Below are positions 8,487 through 49,842 of a DNA stretch of 64,000 bases, piece by piece. Numbering within the stretch: the stretch's first letter is position 1; every line of letters starts with the position of its first letter. A model generated the notes under the pieces. The model searched no databases, was not told the DNA's origin, and worked only from the letters and a program-made list of their open reading frames with translations. The DNA lies in the NCBI GenBank assembly GCA_963513695.1, contig CAUPRL010000014.1:14050-78049 (forward strand), in the 5' to 3' direction. Origin of the DNA: an uncultured Flavobacterium sp. Its GTDB lineage: Bacteria; Bacteroidota; Bacteroidia; Flavobacteriales; Flavobacteriaceae. Both the position numbers and the translations under genes were made by a program.

Positions 8487-10886
8487 TTATTTTATAAGTT
8501 CTGTTTTGAATGTAGTTTTCCCGTTGAATGGATTTGCATCAACTTCAAAAGAATTACCTTTTTTAGACAATGTTATCGATTGCACTTTATCTCCTTCTGG
8601 CAAGAAAACTTTTGCGGTAGCCGTTGTAGTTGCATCCGTAGCATATACTTTTAAGGTCAATTTACTCCAATCCATATCTTTTGTAGATTGTGCCAATTTG
8701 ATGTGAGGAATCGCAGAACCATTTCTTACCAAAACAATTATTGGTAAAGCACCAGCTTCAATTTTGTGCCATCCACCTTGATATACTTTTTTGGTTTGAT
8801 AATCAATCCAAGTTCCTTCTGGAAGATAAACATCTCTACCGGTAACCTCTTCGAATAAAGGAGCCACCAACATACTTGAACCAAAAAGGTATTCGTTATC
8901 AACCAACCAAGAACCTTGATCGTTTGGATATTCTAAAAACAAAGCACGCATCATTGGCAATCCTTTTTGGCTACTTTCTTTGGCTTGAGCATAAATATAC
9001 GGCATCAATTCGTAACGCATATTATCGGCATTTCTAAAGGTTTCCAATAAATCTTTGCTGTACAACCAAGGTTCGCGTGGAGGTTCGCCATGACTTCTTA
9101 CGTGAGAGGTCAACATTCCGAAAGGTGCCCAACGACGGTATAAATTCTCAGGAGATTTGGTAACAAATCCACCTACATCGTGACTCCAGAAACTGAAACC
9201 ACACAATCCTAAAGAAAGACCTCCTCTTAACTCTGCTGACATTGCACCGTTTGAAGTTTCTGCATCACCACCCCAATGCAAAGGGTAGCGTTGGCTTCCT
9301 GCCCAAGTACTTCTCGCCCAAATTAAAGTGTAGCCTTTTTCTTTTTGAGTGATTTCGGCAACAGCTTTATTGTAACGCAATGGGTATAAATTATGTTCGT
9401 AGAAACCCGTTCTTCCAGAATGATAAATTCCATCTGGCGGAGCTGCTTCTCCAAAATCCACTTTGAAAACACTCACTCCTTGATCAAATAATGTTTTCAA
9501 TTTAGCTTGGTACCAAGTCACTGTTGCTGGATTCGAAAAATCTAGAACAGCATCTTCATAAGGTAAATTTCCTTTGCGATCTCTTACAGCCAGATTTTTG
9601 TCCATTATTTCATTAAACAATGTGTTTTTTGGCGAGAAATAAGGCAATTGCCACAAGCAAACGTGGAATCCGTCGTCTTTTAAATCCGACATCATTTTTA
9701 CTGGATCATCAAAACGTTTTTTGGCAAACTCATAATTATTGCGCCAATCAACATCAAACCATCCTGTATCATAATGAATTACATCGGTTGGAATTTTATA
9801 GGCACGAAGATTTTTAGCTACTTCACGGCCTTCTTTTTCAGAAAAATAAGTGATGCGACTCATCCAGAAACCAAATGACCAAAGCGGTGGCATTGCTGCT
9901 TTTCCGGTAAGATTTGTATATTCATCTAATATTTCTTTGGGCTCACCTATAAAGTAAAACAAATCAGCTTCATCGTCTCCTATATACATTTCATTGGCAC
10001 TCCCGTAATATTTTCCAAAATCAACCGTGATTGGTGTAGAATGGTGCATAAAAACTCCGTATCCACGACTACTCATATAAAACGGAATAGGTTTGTACAT
10101 CGTTTCGTTTTGAATTCCGTTGGCATCATCTGTCCAAATAACTACTTTTTGACCACGTTTATTAAATTGGGTAAAAGATTCTCCACAACCAAATAATTTT
10201 TCGTCTGGCTCTAAACTGAAAGACGCCCCCATACTTCTTGAATAATCGCTGCTTCGTCTCACGTATGAAAAAGGTAGCGTTGGCGTGTACGTGTTTGCAA
10301 AATCAGAATTATGAAGTGTTCCTGTTAACAATTTACCTTTTTCATCATATATTTTTACGTGCCAAGGTTTGGTTTGAATTTCAACCGATCCGTGTTTGCT
10401 AGTAAATTTATAACCACCTTCTATTTTAGCATATTTCCACAATTCAGGATGATTGGGTGCAACACCGTCAACTAACATCAATGATTCTTTTTCAGGACGA
10501 AACTGTGGACCCGAAGTCATTTTGATTCTCAAAGTTCTGTCCGACACAAACTGAATTTGAAATGGTAAAACTGGTGAAGCTTCATACTCTGTTGTTGGAA
10601 ATTCATTGGCCACAACTTCTACTGGCTTCATCTCAAAATTATTGAAAGCTTGACGTGTTTTGTAATCATAACGCAAGTATTTTACAGTTCCTTTTCCGGT
10701 TTGTGGATCAAAACTCGCCAATTCATCGGCAAAGTAAAAAGTATTCAAATAATTCTCGAAATCTTTACTAATGTCTATGGGTGCGTTGAGAACATTGGCA
10801 TTTTGAATTTGAGCTGTAGCCTTTGGAACACTAAAAAGTGCCAAAAACACAGTTGAAAATAATGTTATTAACTGAGGTTTGTTCAT
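8487..10886 (-). CDS. GH31 alpha-xylosidase-like glycosidase
   Basis: 799 aa with a signal peptide. Contains FKVDFGE (nucleophile Asp block) and HWGGDAETS (acid/base block), as in YicI/Xyl31A-type enzymes. Confidence 0.85.
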   Translation of the reverse strand: MNKPQLITLFSTVFLALFSVPKATAQIQNANVLNAPIDISKDFENYLNTFYFADELASFDPQTGKGTVKYLRYDYKTRQAFNNFEMKPVEVVANEFPTTEYEASPVLPFQIQFVSDRTLRIKMTSGPQFRPEKESLMLVDGVAPNHPELWKYAKIEGGYKFTSKHGSVEIQTKPWHVKIYDEKGKLLTGTLHNSDFANTYTPTLPFSYVRRSSDYSRSMGASFSLEPDEKLFGCGESFTQFNKRGQKVVIWTDDANGIQNETMYKPIPFYMSSRGYGVFMHHSTPITVDFGKYYGSANEMYIGDDEADLFYFIGEPKEILDEYTNLTGKAAMPPLWSFGFWMSRITYFSEKEGREVAKNLRAYKIPTDVIHYDTGWFDVDWRNNYEFAKKRFDDPVKMMSDLKDDGFHVCLWQLPYFSPKNTLFNEIMDKNLAVRDRKGNLPYEDAVLDFSNPATVTWYQAKLKTLFDQGVSVFKVDFGEAAPPDGIYHSGRTGFYEHNLYPLRYNKAVAEITQKEKGYTLIWARSTWAGSQRYPLHWGGDAETSNGAMSAELRGGLSLGLCGFSFWSHDVGGFVTKSPENLYRRWAPFGMLTSHVRSHGEPPREPWLYSKDLLETFRNADNMRYELMPYIYAQAKESSQKGLPMMRALFLEYPNDQGSWLVDNEYLFGSSMLVAPLFEEVTGRDVYLPEGTWIDYQTKKVYQGGWHKIEAGALPIIVLVRNGSAIPHIKLAQSTKDMDWSKLTLKVYATDATTTATAKVFLPEGDKVQSITLSKKGNSFEVDANPFNGKTTFKTELIK

Positions 10887-19263: not shown

Positions 19264-19322
19264 ATATAAAACAAAACCCAAAACTTTCGCCTTGGGCTAT
19301 CGACTCCTATTAAAAAACATAC

Positions 19323-22139
19323 TTAATTTAGTCTCCTTAATTTTACTCTTGTACTAAACCATAGGACGATTCCAAGTAATGAAATAAGAATCAAAAGGTT
19401 TGGTTCACTCATTCGTTGCACTTCTTCTCCAAGGTCTAATGCTTTGTTGTTCGCTAAAACTTGTTCTTGTTTCTTTTTTAAAATTGCTTTTTGAGCTTCG
19501 TTTTCGACCACTAAATAAGAAGTAACAGGCGTCATTACTTTTGAAATAAAACTATACTTTACCATATTTAGCCATTCGTTATCTGAAATTTCAGGATGTA
19601 AGGATTGAGAATACCATTTTCCTTGCATTATCAATGCCGATTGCCAATTTTTATGTTTGATTTCATTGGCGTCCAGTTTAAAAATATCCTTTTTTAAAAC
19701 AATACTTGCTTGATTATTATTATGTAAATAAAAAGTCTGGTTAGCAGTTTTATATTCCAAAACACTTTGGTTAAAAGTAAAATTAGTACTATCCTTTATT
19801 TGCTCAACTGGATTTGACACCAAAGAATGTGGTTGAAGTTCTCCACTTTGGGTAAGATCAAAAAAGAAATCACTCTCTGGAAATGCACATTTCAAGTCTG
19901 AAAAATCTTTGTCTAAAACAGCTTTTTGTATGCTATCTGTAACCACAATCAAAACAGGATATGTCGCTTTTTGTGCTTTATAGGTTTTGAATAATGCCGT
20001 TCTTACTGCTCTGTCTAAGTAGAAGCCTCCTTCAAAAATTTGCTTTTTATAGGCTTGCTTCCAATCCTCATTTAATGAAATCGTTTTTATATAACTGTTT
20101 ACAAAAGATATTTTTGCATTTTGAGCTAAATTCGGATTGCTTATTAAGGCTTTTTCAATCCTATTAATAAATTGGGGCGAATATTTTCTTTTATCTTTAG
20201 AAACATCAAGCAAAAAATGAAAATATGGCTTACGTTGAACCTTTTTTAATGACTGTTTTTGTTTGGATGACAAATAAATTACTGCATCACTTGTATTGTC
20301 ATCTTGAATAAAAGTTTCTTTATTGTTGCCGAGTTTTACTGTGTTATTATCAATTGTAAAAGTTATCGGTTCTTTATGTAAAATTTCGATTCCAGTTCTT
20401 CTAACTTCATTCTTTGCAAACGGAAAAACTCTAAAGGCGACTTTATTAGCCGTTTGGTAATATAAAATACCTGGATCTTTGTTTTCGTTTCTGATATTTG
20501 AGAAAACCCACATTGCAGTTTTTTTCTCTGCCAAAATTCCCATTTCTTTTCTCTTTCCTACAAACAAATAGTAATCGCTTATCCAAGCGCCCTCAGGCAA
20601 ATCAATGGTTGTTGCATATTCTGAAAACCAATTGTTTTCGCTAGTATTTGTGATTTCTAAATCAATCCAACTTTTCCAAGCATTCAGTTTTTTGTCAAAA
20701 GTACTCTTCGTTGCAATATTTGTAATCTTTACGTTCTCATTTTGAATCCTATCCTGATTTACTTGCAAGGAAGTTGTTCCAAAAAACACATTTTCAATAG
20801 TGTTAATTTTTGCATCCGAAACCGTTAGATTATTTAAAACTAACCAATTGAAATAGGTCGACAAATATGGAGTTTGAGTACCAAAAATAAAATCTCCGTT
20901 TCGTTCTTTTTGTTTCTTGATAGCATTGAGTGTTATTTGCAAAGAACCTTTATCAATAGCATAAGATTTTGAAAAGTTGGGGCTATACAAATAATTAAGT
21001 GTTTCGTCTAAAACAATTTTATCCTTGAGATAGGAGATGCTTATCAAAAGTGGAAGTACTAAAAACCCAAGAAAAAATGTTGCCCAAATGGCTCTTTTAG
21101 AAGAACAACTTTTTAGAAAACGAAAATCTTTAGAAAGTTCACTAATATGTAGCACAAAAAGTAGCAGTGGCGTTAACATTAAAAAACCTGTACCAATAGC
21201 AATTATTGCAACAACAGAAATAGGCAAAAAAGGAAGAAAAACAAGAAAAAAATAGAAGGTATAGGCAAATGTTATACTTCTTCCAAGGAAAAGAAATACT
21301 CTATACATTTTATTTTCAAGGTTTGGTAAACAAATAAAAACACCATTGAAAAACGCTAAGATATAAAACCAATAATTAGTAAAGTTTCCAAAAATTCCCG
21401 AGTCAATTGTTTCAAACTTATTGAATAGCAATCCGTTATTTACAGCTAAACCTATTAATGGAAGTACAATTGTAATTGGTATTTTCCACGCCAATTGGTA
21501 TTGCTGCCAAACGGCGGCCTTTTTGGTTGCAAGTACATAAACAGCTCGAATAATAAAAAACAAAAAAACCAAAGTACCAACAATAATAAAAATTAGTAAG
21601 CTGTGAATTCCAAAAATACCGCCATTGGGTTTCCAAAGTGGTAAAACAATTTGAGAAAACAAATAGCCTGATAAAGGAATAATAAATGCTATCAAAAAAT
21701 TCTTCCACGCTTGATGCTTTTTAGCGTCAGATGTAAAATGAAAAACCAATACAAATAATGAATACGCTAGCGTGGGCATCAAAAATGTGCCAACATACAC
21801 TATTATATTTCCAGACATCATCCATTGTGGAATACTACTTGGAAATATTTCATCAATGTGATAACCATATAAATAAAGGAATGGTATATAAAGCAACAAA
21901 GCTGCTACCCCATACCAAACAGATACACTTTGTTTTTTAATGGTTAGATACAAAGCGTATCCAAAATTTAGGAGTCCTAAAATACCTAAAGTCAAGCCAA
22001 AGGTTTTCCATAAATATAAATTTTCTTCATTTAATAAACTCTTTATAATATTGAATTCTCCAACAAAAAGTAAAAATAACACAACAATTGGAAGTGTGTT
22101 AATGATAAAAATCCATTTGGGATTAAGTAAGTTTTTCAT
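19323..22139 (-). CDS. MSEP-CTERM sorting-domain protein (polytopic N-terminus, VIT-like and vWA-like ectodomain); the XrtN-system substrate type
   Basis: The C-terminus RMSEPNLLILISLLGIVLWFSTRVKLRRLN is the motif, one TM helix and a basic cluster. About 10 TM segments occupy the first ~370 aa. VIT-like DLPEGAWISDYYLFVGKRKEMGILAEKKTAMWVF and vWA-like YFHFLLDVSKD are present. Confidence 0.8.
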   Translation of the reverse strand: MKNLLNPKWIFIINTLPIVVLFLLFVGEFNIIKSLLNEENLYLWKTFGLTLGILGLLNFGYALYLTIKKQSVSVWYGVAALLLYIPFLYLYGYHIDEIFPSSIPQWMMSGNIIVYVGTFLMPTLAYSLFVLVFHFTSDAKKHQAWKNFLIAFIIPLSGYLFSQIVLPLWKPNGGIFGIHSLLIFIIVGTLVFLFFIIRAVYVLATKKAAVWQQYQLAWKIPITIVLPLIGLAVNNGLLFNKFETIDSGIFGNFTNYWFYILAFFNGVFICLPNLENKMYRVFLFLGRSITFAYTFYFFLVFLPFLPISVVAIIAIGTGFLMLTPLLLFVLHISELSKDFRFLKSCSSKRAIWATFFLGFLVLPLLISISYLKDKIVLDETLNYLYSPNFSKSYAIDKGSLQITLNAIKKQKERNGDFIFGTQTPYLSTYFNWLVLNNLTVSDAKINTIENVFFGTTSLQVNQDRIQNENVKITNIATKSTFDKKLNAWKSWIDLEITNTSENNWFSEYATTIDLPEGAWISDYYLFVGKRKEMGILAEKKTAMWVFSNIRNENKDPGILYYQTANKVAFRVFPFAKNEVRRTGIEILHKEPITFTIDNNTVKLGNNKETFIQDDNTSDAVIYLSSKQKQSLKKVQRKPYFHFLLDVSKDKRKYSPQFINRIEKALISNPNLAQNAKISFVNSYIKTISLNEDWKQAYKKQIFEGGFYLDRAVRTALFKTYKAQKATYPVLIVVTDSIQKAVLDKDFSDLKCAFPESDFFFDLTQSGELQPHSLVSNPVEQIKDSTNFTFNQSVLEYKTANQTFYLHNNNQASIVLKKDIFKLDANEIKHKNWQSALIMQGKWYSQSLHPEISDNEWLNMVKYSFISKVMTPVTSYLVVENEAQKAILKKKQEQVLANNKALDLGEEVQRMSEPNLLILISLLGIVLWFSTRVKLRRLN

Positions 22140-22659
22140 ATTTAGTCTTGTTTTTTAAAAATCTTTCTAATAGGTAATACCCTAAAACCAAAAAAAATAA
22201 ATTGGTTATAATTCCAATTGCTTCGTGAATAACTAATTGGGAATTTTTAGACAAAAAAGGGGTTGCGTGATTTTGCAAAACAATGGAAGCAAATATTCTG
22301 AACGCATTCACAAAAATTGTCATAAGGTAAGCTGACACCAATGCTACAGGAATTATTAAGGCTTTACATAAAGAATTCAAAATATACTTTAAAGCCAAAA
22401 TACAAATCATAGTGAAGCATAAAAGCAAAAAATTGAAACCTGAACACGATTTTTCGATAATAACATTAAAGTTTTCGTAATAGAACCCTCTATCAGCAAA
22501 ATAAATCGATTTATAACTTGTCAATAATCCAACCAATTTGTCGGTTGGATTAAGTAAAAAAAATAAATCATTAGTATTGGCAATTGTATAACCAAATTTC
22601 AATAAGATAAAAATCACTATTGTGACCAGATAATAAAATATGTTTTTAATTGCTATCAT
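22123..22659 (-). CDS. xrtN: Minimal exosortase-family protein (XrtN-type), 178 aa
   Basis: About 5 TM helices. The ordered exosortase signature is present: Cys72 (EKSCSGFNF), Arg121 (NAFRIF) and His145 (VIHEAIG). It overlaps the substrate gene start by 17 nt. Confidence 0.7.
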   Translation of the reverse strand: MIAIKNIFYYLVTIVIFILLKFGYTIANTNDLFFLLNPTDKLVGLLTSYKSIYFADRGFYYENFNVIIEKSCSGFNFLLLCFTMICILALKYILNSLCKALIIPVALVSAYLMTIFVNAFRIFASIVLQNHATPFLSKNSQLVIHEAIGIITNLFFLVLGYYLLERFLKNKTKYEKLT

Positions 22660-22705
22660 ATGTTTTTTTTAGATACTGTATTACGTAATTTCGAAAAACT
22701 AAATA

Positions 22706-24094
22706 TTACTTTTTTTTGCTTAGCAATTCATAATACAAGGCCTTTGACAAAAAAGAGTTATTTTGATAGCGACTAATTTCTTCTTCCTTCGAAACTTCTG
22801 GATATTGTCCATCTAAATTCTTTAATTTAAAAAAGTCTCTTCTAGCTTCATCATTAAAATCCAATCTACTCAAAAACATAGGTTCCACACCTTTGTTGAC
22901 CGAAATATTGTAATTCGTAATCAAATTTCCCCAATTGACATAGCTGCATAAAAGAATCGTTCCATAAAAATACCAAACCATTTGGTTAAAAAGATAGGCA
23001 TTTGTTTTTTGCTTTGTGATTTTCGAAAAGGTGAAAAACAAACCAATAATCGCTAAAATAAGAAACGCATAAACACCTAAACGTTTGTAAGTTAATCCGA
23101 AGAAAGAAACGTACTCTGAGTTTTTAATAATGGTGCTAAGAATTAGGATTCCATTTAATAAAATCCAAATTTTAGACAACTGTTTCAAGTTTTTGGCTTT
23201 TGCATCGAAATTGAAACCTCCTTTAAAATAAAATAGTATCACACCAACGGCCATAATGATAGAAAAAATCACCGCATTGACTCTTTCGTGCGTAGCGGCA
23301 CTCAATTTTGATTTTTCGACAACTTCAAAAAATTGCTCATAATTATACGTGACAATAAAAACCAAGATTAAAACATTCAGAAGAACTAAAGTAATTTCGC
23401 CACTTCGTCTTTCAAAATCAATATCTAGAAACGAAAAAGTTCTTTGATTTCTATTGGTTGTTTTATCATTGAATTCATTATCTAAAAGCGAATTTTTCTC
23501 ATAACAAACGTCTGGAATCCAATAATTCCAAAACGTAAAGGAAAGATAAAAACCCAATAAAGAGATTAGAACGAGTTGAAAAAAATTAACATCCAAATAA
23601 TAATCCGTAAATAAAGCCGAAAAATGGTCGCTACCAAAAGCATATACGATAAAAAACAAACCGACAAATACAGTTGGAATAATGAAATAAGCAATAAACT
23701 TTTTAGCAAAATCATTCTTAATTTCTCGTTTGGGAAGCCATTGAGTAAACATCAGCATTCGACCTAAAGATGTGATTCCGTTTAGGAATGCTAACGGAAA
23801 AACCTGTACTATTTTCAGATTTGTTTCCTGAGTTTTGAATTGCAAAAAACAAACGGACATCGCCAAAGCCAAAAAAGAAACAAAATCACCATACCATGCA
23901 AATGCCAAACAAGACAAAATGGATGTGACCACTAGAACCAAATGGGACCGACTCGTAAATCGATCCTGAAAGAAGTAACAAATGATTCCCGTAAGAACTA
24001 ATCCGAAAATTGCTAGGTTAACTCCTACTGACTCATTGTAAAAAAGCAGTGTAAAAATCAAACTGCAAACAAAAATTAAATGATGTTTTTTCAT
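22706..24094 (-). CDS. Polytopic inner-membrane protein of unknown function (DUF4153/DUF4173-like by recollection)
   Basis: More than 10 hydrophobic segments. I prefer ATG at 24094 (MKKHHLIF...) over the track's TTG at 24127. Confidence 0.6.
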   Translation of the reverse strand: MKKHHLIFVCSLIFTLLFYNESVGVNLAIFGLVLTGIICYFFQDRFTSRSHLVLVVTSILSCLAFAWYGDFVSFLALAMSVCFLQFKTQETNLKIVQVFPLAFLNGITSLGRMLMFTQWLPKREIKNDFAKKFIAYFIIPTVFVGLFFIVYAFGSDHFSALFTDYYLDVNFFQLVLISLLGFYLSFTFWNYWIPDVCYEKNSLLDNEFNDKTTNRNQRTFSFLDIDFERRSGEITLVLLNVLILVFIVTYNYEQFFEVVEKSKLSAATHERVNAVIFSIIMAVGVILFYFKGGFNFDAKAKNLKQLSKIWILLNGILILSTIIKNSEYVSFFGLTYKRLGVYAFLILAIIGLFFTFSKITKQKTNAYLFNQMVWYFYGTILLCSYVNWGNLITNYNISVNKGVEPMFLSRLDFNDEARRDFFKLKNLDGQYPEVSKEEEISRYQNNSFLSKALYYELLSKKK

Positions 24095-24148
24095 AATTAA
24101 AAAATTTAAAAGTACTTTGCGCTTCAAAGTACAAGGTTAAAAAAAAGG

Positions 24149-24442
24149 TTATTTAGATTTGAATAATTTTTCCAGACTATTAAGATGCGAAACAAATGAT
24201 GCTCTACCCAAATTGGTAACTCGATACGATGTTTTTGGTTTTTTGCCAACAAATTCTTTTTTGATTTCGATATATGCGCCTTTCTCTAAGGCTGAGGAAT
24301 GACTTGCTAAATTGCCATCTGTTATATTTAATAGGGTTTTCATTTCGGTGAAATCTACCCAATCATTGACCATCAGAATAGACATAATGCCTAGTCGGAC
24401 ACGACTTTCGAAATCTTTATTTAGTTTATCAATGATTCCCAT
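24149..24442 (-). CDS. Small winged-helix transcriptional regulator (HTH_34-like)
   Basis: 97 aa. The pattern RLGIMSILMVNDWVDFTEMKTLLNITDGNLASHSSALEKGAYIEIKKEF.GKKPKTSYRVT.LG is typical of this wHTH family. Confidence 0.7.
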   Translation of the reverse strand: MGIIDKLNKDFESRVRLGIMSILMVNDWVDFTEMKTLLNITDGNLASHSSALEKGAYIEIKKEFVGKKPKTSYRVTNLGRASFVSHLNSLEKLFKSK

Positions 24443-24451
24443 TCGGAGGAT

Positions 24452-25066
24452 TTATTTATATTTTCTAAAGACTATTAAACCATACAATATATGCAATATA
24501 CCAAATCCTATAATCCAAAAAACCAAACCATAACCTAAAAAGAACAAGGAAACACAACCTAAAGCCAGTTCACAAAATCCTAAATATTTAATATCCGAAA
24601 AAGTATATTTCTCAGCATTAATCAATGCTAAGCCATAAAACAGCAAAGTGGCTGGAGCAATTAAAACATAGATTTGATGGTACAAAAGCGCCAAACAAAA
24701 TACACCGCCAACTAGTAATGGAATAGCTAAATTGAAAAGCATTTTTTTGGTAGCCGAGGTCCAAATCGGTAAATTATACTTTTTACTTTTTCGAATGGTA
24801 AAGAAGATTCCGAATGTTAGTGCGAAAAACAAAATTATCAAAGCTATTATTACCAACTCAGAAACTAAATCTACCGAATACAATTTATGCTCCCCATCGA
24901 AATAATCGAGTCCATTGATTTTAAACAATTGATACACATACAATCCGCCAATCAAAGCAGATAGACCTGCAAATACTCCTGAGAGTCCGCTTAATGAAAT
25001 AAATCGTGAAGAACGTTCCATCATAGAACGAATGTGTGATAAATCTTCTTGGTGTTTTCGATTCAT
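24452..25066 (-). CDS. Four-to-five TM membrane protein of unknown function, first gene of the cluster
   Basis: 204 aa and hydrophobic. It lies 9 nt upstream of the regulator gene. Confidence 0.6.
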   Translation of the reverse strand: MNRKHQEDLSHIRSMMERSSRFISLSGLSGVFAGLSALIGGLYVYQLFKINGLDYFDGEHKLYSVDLVSELVIIALIILFFALTFGIFFTIRKSKKYNLPIWTSATKKMLFNLAIPLLVGGVFCLALLYHQIYVLIAPATLLFYGLALINAEKYTFSDIKYLGFCELALGCVSLFFLGYGLVFWIIGFGILHILYGLIVFRKYK

Positions 25067-25086
25067 AATTAAAGTACTTTGTAATG

Positions 25087-25094
25087 CAAAGTTA
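25087..25094 (-). promoter_or_regulatory. Candidate -7 promoter box for the membrane/XrtN cluster
   Basis: The plus strand reads CAAAGTTA, so the minus strand reads TAACTTTG. It lies 20 nt from the ATG at 25066. Confidence 0.45.
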
Positions 25095-25151
25095 AATTAT
25101 ATTTTGAATTGACAAACAAATAATGAAACTATTTTTGAACTATTTTAAAAT

Positions 25152-25183
25152 AACAAAGCCTATCCGAGAGAATAGGCTTTGTT
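25152..25183 (-). terminator. folD terminator hairpin
   Basis: Perfect 12-bp stem AACAAAGCCTAT / ATAGGCTTTGTT with an 8-nt loop. An A/T-rich run follows on the minus strand. Confidence 0.65.
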
Positions 25184-49740: not shown

Positions 49741-49832
49741 TGGGCGTGACCCTTCGTAAAAACTACGGGTCGGGCTGTACGCTCCCGCTTTTTTTGAAAA
49801 CAAAAAAGAGCTCCACTACCATCCCTCACGCA
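49741..49832. repeat. GC-rich REP-like extragenic element between convergent genes
   Basis: The ends GGCGTGA... and ...TCACGC are inverted. Internal features are a GACCC/GGGTC pairing and a T7-GAAAAC-A6 hairpin. GC content is far above the flanks. Confidence 0.5.
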
Positions 49833-49842
49833 AAACAGCATA

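Follow-up and report, generated by a model that had tools for sequence, protein, structure and literature searches.

A minimal exosortase K and its adjacent MSEP-CTERM substrate: a probably self-sufficient gene pair behind an independent regulator locus in an uncultured Flavobacterium

Introduction

Can one very small exosortase and one substrate form a sorting system of their own, or do they belong to a larger unit together with the genes next to them? This question is raised by a locus in a 64-kb stretch of DNA (64,000 nucleotides, in the following called the window) from contig CAUPRL010000014.1 of an uncultured Flavobacterium sp., in which five co-oriented genes follow each other on the minus strand. 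The first three, which we call the trio, encode a 204-amino acid (aa) protein, a winged helix-turn-helix (wHTH) regulator and a DUF4153 protein, and the last two encode a 178-aa exosortase and a 938-aa protein with a C-terminal sorting signal. An earlier note, made from the sequence alone, had described them as a dedicated enzyme–substrate pair inside a five-gene operon with a single promoter. Our analysis makes it probable that the last two genes, coding for exosortase K (XrtK) and an MSEP-CTERM protein, are a dedicated pair and a self-sufficient module, which was inserted behind an independent trio and is probably read from the second of two promoter/operator-like elements.

Results and Discussion

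The enzyme and its substrate

The features of the pair in the window are the following:

22659-22123, minus strand: xrtK, 178-aa minimal exosortase K (TIGR04287, TIGR04178, PF09721)
22444-22446, 22297-22299 and 22225-22227, minus strand: codons of the xrtK triad Cys72, Arg121 and His145
22139-19323, minus strand: gene of the MSEP-CTERM protein, 938 aa (TIGR04286)
aa 1 to ~370 of the MSEP-CTERM protein: N-terminal polytopic domain, from hydropathy
20331-20732, minus strand: VIT-like beta-sandwich of the MSEP-CTERM protein, aa ~470-603
19830-20246, minus strand: vWA-like alpha/beta domain of the MSEP-CTERM protein, aa ~632-770
19323-19415, minus strand: sorting signal with R909-M-S-E-P913, transmembrane (TM) helix 914-928, RVKLRRLN and stop

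By comparison with curated models the 178-aa enzyme is exosortase K, a catalogued family. It matches TIGR04287 (exosortase K) with 151.7 bits at a cutoff of 55 over model positions 1-162 of 163, and it also passes the exosortase/archaeosortase signature TIGR04178 (30.1 vs 23) and PF09721 (30.4 vs 25.7). The label 'XrtN-type', under which the pair had first been described, therefore has to be dropped, as no XrtN enzyme model matches the 178-aa protein at E <= 0.01 and the model for XrtN targets, TIGR04477 (sorted_by_XrtN), reaches 48.9 bits vs a cutoff of 250 on the 938-aa protein, covering only its VIT segment (residues 493-585). The match to PF09721 is confined to profile positions 150-252 of 254, and XrtK would thus retain just the family's catalytic core, without the N-terminal half of typical exosortases. 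The ordered Cys72/Arg121/His145 signature noticed before is indeed present and is invariant in 20 diverse homologues with 50-85% identity, the nearest named relative being from Flavobacterium nackdongense (85%). The predicted model of XrtK shows a compact helical core (pLDDT 72), for which neither a fold search nor a sequence search of the PDB found a solved relative.

The 938-aa protein matches TIGR04286 (MSEP-CTERM protein) with 936.1 bits (cutoff 150) over residues 2-931. Its C-terminus reads ...QRMSEPNLLILISLLGIVLWFSTRVKLRRLN and combines the motif RMSEP, the TM helix NLLILISLLGIVLWF and the basic cluster RVKLRRLN to the tripartite signal that had been recognized already. The arrangement M-x-[E/G]-P, TM helix and basic tail is kept in 71/71 complete orthologues with the consensus TQR-MSEP-SL, M and P being found in all 71 and E in 70 of them. 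Within the window it is the sole genuine tail of this kind.

In order to see how strictly both genes belong together we gathered 80 XrtK loci from different species genomes, with flanks limited to 10 kb (locus numbers with the prefix L are our own). The MSEP-CTERM gene adjoins xrtK on the same strand in 78-79 of the 80 loci, and the 17-nt overlap of both genes seen in the window is identical in 64/79, which suggests translational coupling. In the 10 kb around each XrtK gene no other open reading frame (ORF) was found to end in an MSEP-type tail. As both models are passed by a wide margin, the adjacency is strict, the tail is conserved and no second tail occurs within this distance, these comparisons leave the proposal of a dedicated one-enzyme, one-substrate system well supported.

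The hydropathy profile of the 938-aa protein contains nine N-terminal TM segments and one at the C-terminus, which confirms the polytopic start described earlier. An N-in topology with residues ~370-909 in the periplasm would fit this profile. In the AlphaFold model the beta-sandwich at ~470-603 and the alpha/beta domain at ~632-770 are moderately confident, and the top structural match in the PDB is ITIH1 (6FPY/6FPZ) with its tandem of VIT and vWA domains (E ~1e-6, ~400 columns). The vWA-like region, for which the local model confidence is moderate, also resembles the vWA domain of CMG2 at fold level only, and no PDB relative was found by sequence. The VIT family PF08487 stays just below its gathering score (24.3 vs 26.5 bits), and some orthologues have precomputed PF08487 matches. 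The VIT and vWA segments claimed earlier are thus supported partly by the structural match to ITIH1.

Comparison with known exosortase systems

The pair of exosortase K and MSEP-CTERM protein (TIGR04287 and TIGR04286) is already catalogued and is defined bioinformatically, in agreement with the earlier statement that the pairing (there named exosortase N and MSEP-CTERM) has family names from bioinformatics and is not known to have an assigned function. With the cutoffs exceeded, a length near the 163-position model, the adjacency, the tail and the occurrence in Bacteroidota, the pair in the window cannot be distinguished from this family; what is new is the insertion behind the wHTH trio as its context, and the cassette that it forms elsewhere. 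The exosortase N system also consists of a Bacteroidota exosortase and a dedicated VIT-domain target and the VIT regions of both systems appear to be homologous, but the full-length target and the enzyme differ, as described above. XrtA/PEP-CTERM and ArtA/PGF-CTERM share with XrtK the Cys/Arg/His signature and a tripartite signal in which the motif abuts the TM helix. In contrast to XrtK, which has only the core and one adjacent polytopic substrate, these enzymes are larger, have many substrates and are often found in exopolysaccharide loci. Exosortase F (XrtF) of Flavobacterium johnsoniae likewise has a partner gene dedicated to it and is the only exosortase of Bacteroidota with an experimental phenotype, affecting surface colonisation and biofilm (PMC10936215). 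It differs from XrtK in both subfamily and partner and gives no direct information on it.

The pair and the trio

The genes of the trio are located as follows:

25066-24452, minus strand: 204-aa protein gene, first gene of the trio, ~5 TM helices, no Pfam or NCBIfam family
24442-24149, minus strand: gene of the 97-aa winged-helix regulator (HTH_34, PF13601)
24094 (ATG) or 24127 (TTG) to 22706, minus strand: DUF4153 polytopic membrane protein (PF13687, 103.2 bits), ~9 TM helices

Five co-oriented ORFs with the 17-nt overlap and gaps of 9 nt (between the 204-aa and 97-aa genes) and 46 nt (before xrtK) are present as described. The assignment of the 97-aa protein as wHTH regulator is borne out by 96.3 bits for PF13601 at a cutoff of 27. 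No functional report on DUF4153 was found in the literature searched.

Clustering the neighbours of the XrtK loci revealed the trio genes as the only recurrent ones, in a subset of the loci. From 55 loci with assessable context 18 are linked to the trio, 16 are flanked by attC-like sites (described below), 21 show neither and none shows both; the pair hence occurs without the trio in 37/55. For the reciprocal view a search with the 204-aa protein, which has >580 relatives in metagenome contigs, supplied 80 metagenome loci. Among the 43 loci with at least 6.5 kb of assessable downstream sequence the winged-helix gene follows the 204-aa gene in all 43, DUF4153 is present in 34, and XrtK or MSEP-CTERM in none.

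Close relatives of the window in the metagenome sample share the synteny ffh-folD-trio-rluF. In five of them the site between DUF4153 and rluF is empty, with stop codons 38-57 nt apart and one hairpin between them, and other close relatives have filled it with CorA, a histidine kinase and LytTR regulator, a beta-propeller protein or a 229-aa ORFan (L083, L084, L087, L090, L092). Genes thus come and go at the DUF4153-rluF site, which can be called a local hot spot. Because it is empty or differently filled in the close relatives, the pair in the window is best described as a 3.44-kb insertion in a variable site, and the trio upstream of it as autonomous.

The conserved linkage of the upstream genes thus is not obligatory: it is absent from 37/55 loci and holds in 18/55. 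Where it holds, the order trio, zero to three genes, XrtK, MSEP-CTERM is found in Pedobacter, Crocinitomicaceae, Jejuia/Algibacter, Halpernia, Chitinophagaceae, Cytophagales and Marinifilum/Labilibaculum, and the trio-linked lineages form long, deep branches of the MSEP tree. A rearranged version is present in Halpernia humi (L077, 9366-15324), with the 204-aa gene followed by XrtK, MSEP-CTERM, wHTH and DUF4153, the five genes still being together. Cultured relatives that share the arrangement of the window are F. alvei, F. nackdongense and F. succinicans.

Regulatory elements

The following elements lie around and between the genes:

25152-25183, minus strand: hairpin 3' of folD, 12-bp stem and 8-nt loop followed by ATTTT
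25071-25116, minus strand: P1/O1 with -33 TTTG (25113-25116), -7 box TAACTTTG (25087-25094) and the overlapping element ACTTTG-N5-CAAAGTACTTT (25071-25092)
24109-24132, minus strand: P2/O2 with a second ACTTTG-N5-CAAAGTACTTT, 8-bp inverted repeat GTACTTTG/CAAAGTAC and then a T-run
22660-22705, minus strand: 46-nt gap between DUF4153 and xrtK, free of terminators, with the palindrome ATTACGTAAT at 22680-22689
19275-19298, minus strand: terminator-like hairpin between the MSEP-CTERM stop and the convergent rluF stop (19263)

The hairpin at 25152-25183, which is kept in L001, is likely the folD terminator named earlier and the upstream boundary of the locus; it was read directly, as the consensus terminator scan overlooked it by one T. 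At the other end the hairpin at 19275-19298 presumably ends the transcription unit, and the empty sites of the relatives hold equivalent bidirectional hairpins.

TAnnTTTG is the -7-type consensus of Bacteroidota. The box TAACTTTG, from which all five genes had been thought to be read, is present 18 nt downstream of the TTTG at 25113-25116, and it is not the sole promoter candidate. The 22-nt element occurs in exact copies at 25071-25092 and 24109-24130 on the minus strand (chance expectation 0.22), and in each copy region it overlaps a -7-type box. Among the 80 XrtK loci it is confined to 20 trio-linked ones from several Bacteroidota classes, usually with one copy before the 204-aa gene and one after the wHTH gene, and it is also found in most metagenome trio loci. 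A third element-like match at 10519-10540 is located inside a coding ORF and was judged to be due to chance. From this distribution we infer that the element is a palindromic operator (ACTTTG-N5-CAAAGT) of the wHTH regulator which overlaps two promoters, and this palindrome is probably what the wHTH protein binds.

The second copy also affects the start of the DUF4153 gene. As the TTG at 24127 falls within the conserved element and ATGAAAAAACA after the element is conserved, the ATG at 24094 is the preferred start. It yields a protein of 462 aa and a gap of 54 nt behind the wHTH gene, replacing the 21-nt gap given before, which depends on the TTG.

Between DUF4153 and xrtK the scan of the window found no terminator-like site, which makes P2 the probable promoter of the pair. 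Since 18/55 loci from different classes are linked to the trio and this terminator is missing, a facultative co-transcription or co-regulation of the pair with the trio is plausible. The palindrome ATTACGTAAT, to which attention had been drawn, does exist at 22680-22689, but it was rejected as a regulatory site, since the window has 86 perfect palindromes of 10 bp and the closest relative lacks this one.

Apart from the pair, a Flavo-1 RNA (Rfam RF01705) was identified at 49764-49836 on the minus strand (45.3 bits vs a gathering score of 42), unrelated to the pair, and DNA of the window was detected in freshwater metagenomes.

Cassettes in related genomes

In loci without the trio the pair is found as a segment of ~3.4 kb holding only XrtK and MSEP-CTERM, with 80-92% DNA identity across orders and phyla in unrelated contexts (Draconibacterium vs Lutibacter 92%, Balneola vs Flavobacterium 83%) and a sharp drop of identity at both ends. 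The 5' boundary is G|TTACCACAC, ~24 nt ahead of the start codon. The 3' boundary follows 1-6 nt after the stop codon and consists of the inverted copy GTGTGGTAAC and then an imperfect palindrome ending RRAMC-GTT. Both ends covary, GTTACCAGCC occurring with GGCTGGTAAC, GTTGCC with GGCAAC and GTTAGCAG with CTGCTAAC. In seven loci with XrtK cassettes the first seven informative bases match the R''-like box of the own downstream site at 6.6/7 and that of the physically adjacent site at 1.0/7. For seven short unrelated cassettes the values are 5.6/7 and 2.6/7, random pairing giving 2.6/7.

The attC-like sites are ~52, 124 or 181 nt long, with G|TT as putative recombination point and with asymmetric spacers, and occur in genomes of Flavobacteriales, Marinilabiliales, Chitinophagales, Cytophagales and Balneola. 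They were studied by an iterated nhmmer profile and explicit pair counting. In 24 aligned sites 18/18 stem pairs show compensatory changes and 76% of the cells are paired (52% after shuffling); covariation scores 0.558, while shuffled alignments give 0.193 (0/500 reach it) and slid controls 0.07-0.17. This covarying stem contains one conserved mismatch, of an invariant A in the 5' arm with a C in the 3' arm that hardly varies (alignment A5, columns 22/112, L004-L071), which is reminiscent of the structural marks that set the strand polarity of attC. Three other approaches had been given up: a purpose-made scanner for AAC...GTT, demanding complementary arms without gaps, overlooked even known sites, requiring AAC/GTT closure in minimum-energy folds failed as three base pairs are too weak, and a fixed-structure covariance model of trimmed half-sites was dropped as the sites use two pairing registers. 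Rfam holds no family for these sites. With the profile of the ~124-nt class, co-oriented arrays were found with six sites in L033 (8820-18720), four in L025 (659-5811) and three each in L018 (4627-15593) and L071 (1-11279), and the ORFs beside the cassette sites are mostly ORFans. Arrays are present in the complete genomes of Flavobacterium sp. NRK F7 (NZ_JAMXLB010000001.1, ~3.64-3.66 Mb) and Draconibacterium (OY781971.1, ~0.556-0.577 Mb).

No canonical integron integrase was detected within 10 kb of the XrtK loci by regular expressions, Pfam, NCBIfam or tblastn. The sole recombinase in the 80 loci (L018, 19540-20500, minus strand) carries Phage_integrase and SAM_4 and scores best against the XerA/integron-integrase model, below the cutoffs (TIGR02249 185.6 vs 265 in two stretches, NF040815 206.6 vs 220), and it seems to be without the IntI-specific insert. 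It lies downstream of a cassette array in convergent orientation, has an attC-like motif after its stop codon, runs off the end of the locus and is possibly frameshifted; no counterparts were found in the other loci. A divergent ORF heading the array of L033, considered as integrase candidate, proved to be AnmK.

Contigs of 3.38-3.50 kb, almost exactly the length of the cassette, are present in dozens of assemblies. Eight Logan contigs (L161-L168, 3.41-3.49 kb) encode a 100%-identical MSEP-CTERM protein, have differing upstream flanks and end within the core of the repeated site, in keeping with a single cassette that occurs in more than one context in a sample. Free circular cassettes were not detected in the 3.4-kb Logan contigs.

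Like integron cassettes and CALIN arrays, in which attC sites cluster without an integron-integrase, these segments in related genomes, not in the window, have G|TT bounds, 5' bases pairing with their own R''-like ...AAC box, imperfect palindromic sites with compensatory changes and co-oriented arrays behind mostly ORFan genes. They differ by the missing canonical integrase within 10 kb, the quantised site lengths and the asymmetric spacers. By these features the pair in related genomes has the structure of an integron-type cassette. Integrons are described as very rare in Bacteroidetes by IntegronFinder 2.0 (PMC9024848), and in the literature searched no paper joins 'exosortase' and 'integron'. 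We give about even chances to the wider view that many Bacteroidota (Flavobacteriales, Marinilabiliales, Cytophagales, Chitinophagales) and Balneolales carry apparently undescribed integron-like cassette arrays, with attC-like sites of these three lengths and G|TT bounds and no canonical IntI close by, in which XrtK-MSEP would be a two-gene cassette of 3.4 kb.

The profile of the ~124-nt attC-like class matches neither the window nor any trio-linked locus. Directly after the MSEP-CTERM stop the window (19299-19322) has GTATGTTTTTTAAT, which weakly resembles the cassette R'' box GTATGTGTGGTAAC (10/14) at the expected position, and L001 has CGTATTACCATAT upstream of xrtK, with a weak likeness to CGTTACCACACAT of the cassette. 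Both may be eroded remnants of cassette ends.

Proposed function and alternatives

For the function of the pair we infer the following model. The 938-aa protein would insert N-in with ~9 TM helices and expose the VIT- and vWA-like ectodomain in the periplasm, the C-terminal TM helix serving as second anchor, with the MSEP motif on the membrane's outer side and the basic cluster reaching into the cytoplasm. In analogy to ArtA and the sortases, whose mechanism is taken from the summary in bioRxiv 10.1101/2023.06.07.544157, XrtK would cut within the membrane at MSEP by means of Cys72, Arg121 and His145. The cut would remove the C-terminal anchor while the ectodomain would stay tethered through the N-terminal polytopic domain, and the new C-terminus might simply be freed or be passed to an acceptor such as a lipid or glycan. 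Read-through from the second promoter/operator-like element would put the pair facultatively under the control of the wHTH regulator.

A parallel is offered by ITIH1 with its tandem of VIT and vWA domains. The precursors of ITIH proteins undergo a cut close to their C-terminus, after which the residue now at the end forms an ester with a glycosaminoglycan. The parallel to a sortase-like transfer is striking, but it is a lead only. ITIH1 is secreted by eukaryotes and has ~10% identity; the protein of the window, unlike it, has an incomplete metal ion-dependent adhesion site (MIDAS), would be anchored at both ends and is compared through a low-confidence model.

Several points weigh against the reading of the pair as a self-sufficient module under facultative control of the trio. 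Processing, topology and transcription of the pair are all deduced, and no experimental work on XrtK or the MSEP-CTERM protein was found in the literature searched. The AlphaFold model of the full-length 938-aa protein is poor (pLDDT 49), and no VWA family model matches it at E <= 0.01. Its MIDAS, rightly called degenerate before, reads D645-V-S-K-D649, D645 and S647 being invariant and the third position being D or N. As the motif is incomplete, a classical metal-dependent ligand binding by the vWA-like domain is doubtful. P2 has no clear -33 TTTG in the window and its copy of the element is flagged as terminator-like by the scan, so it is possibly a weak terminator as well; little transcription might then pass on into xrtK, for which a separate promoter may have gone unrecognised. 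Finally, as unrelated genes occupy the same site in close relatives, the adjacency to the trio could be incidental in this lineage.

This last point leads to the alternative that the pair has no relation to the trio at all, sits in a generic variable site and uses its own promoter in the 46-nt gap. It would explain the CorA, histidine kinase and LytTR or beta-propeller genes at the same DUF4153-rluF site, the weak R''-like sequence behind the MSEP-CTERM stop (10/14) and the position of the MSEP clade of the window, which nests beside the mobile cassette clade. We still consider it unlikely, as the pair is found recurrently downstream of the trio in deep, unrelated lineages, far above chance for one locus per genome, as the window lacks the terminator behind DUF4153 that is retained in relatives whose inserts are unrelated, and as no TAnnTTTG box is seen in the 46-nt gap.

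The five-gene operon with a single promoter, in which the regulator and the two membrane proteins are integral to an XrtN-type system and form one functional unit with the pair, agrees with the co-orientation and short gaps, with the same order downstream of the trio in 18/55 assessable loci from several Bacteroidota classes and with the genes of Halpernia that are rearranged yet together. Against these stand the identification of the enzyme as XrtK, the two promoter/operator-like elements, the trio without the pair in 43/43 loci, the pair without the trio in 37/55, its movement alone as a cassette, and the empty site in close relatives, which make such a unit clearly improbable.

Regarding the chemistry, the tail could be an uncleaved second anchor and XrtK a non-proteolytic partner like an insertase, chaperone or regulator. 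No cleavage of an exosortase K substrate is reported in the literature searched and the N-terminal half of typical exosortases is missing (PF09721 positions 150-252 of 254), yet the Cys/Arg/His residues are invariant in 20 divergent sequences, the equivalent residues are required in ArtA according to the account in bioRxiv 10.1101/2023.06.07.544157, and the conservation of M (71/71), E (70/71) and P (71/71) argues for a recognised and processed site, so that we regard an uncleaved tail as very improbable. Least probable of all is a conflict system for anti-phage defence or envelope surveillance with a VIT/vWA sensor and proteolysis as trigger: it would suit an integron-type cargo, which many defence cassettes are, among mostly ORFan genes and spread across orders and phyla, but none of the five proteins has a meaningful PADLOC defence-model match, no effector domain is recognisable, and deep lineages appear to inherit the pair vertically with a housekeeping-like regulator locus.

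Conclusion

In summary, the autonomy and mobility of the XrtK/MSEP-CTERM pair, its insertion history in this lineage and the conserved dual operator-like element of the neighbouring module are what is added here to a catalogued family. The attC-like arrays would bear on the extent of integron-type gene capture in Bacteroidota, and the 22-bp element is a candidate operator for the uncharacterised and very widespread HTH_34/membrane-protein module.

For exosortase chemistry in general, the points of interest are where exactly the cut falls and to which acceptor, if any, the new C-terminus is handed on, and most exosortase systems include dozens of substrates and large enzymes within polysaccharide loci. 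With a 178-aa enzyme and one adjacent substrate, XrtK/MSEP-CTERM is the smallest version and a good model, for which the ITIH parallel offers a concrete acceptor hypothesis. As these two genes spread among distant hosts without companions, no other dedicated partner should be needed, and therefore a 3.4-kb fragment should suffice for heterologous expression. If the integron-like cassette reading is true, the pair would be a fully self-sufficient module for the maturation of an envelope protein that works in very different hosts.

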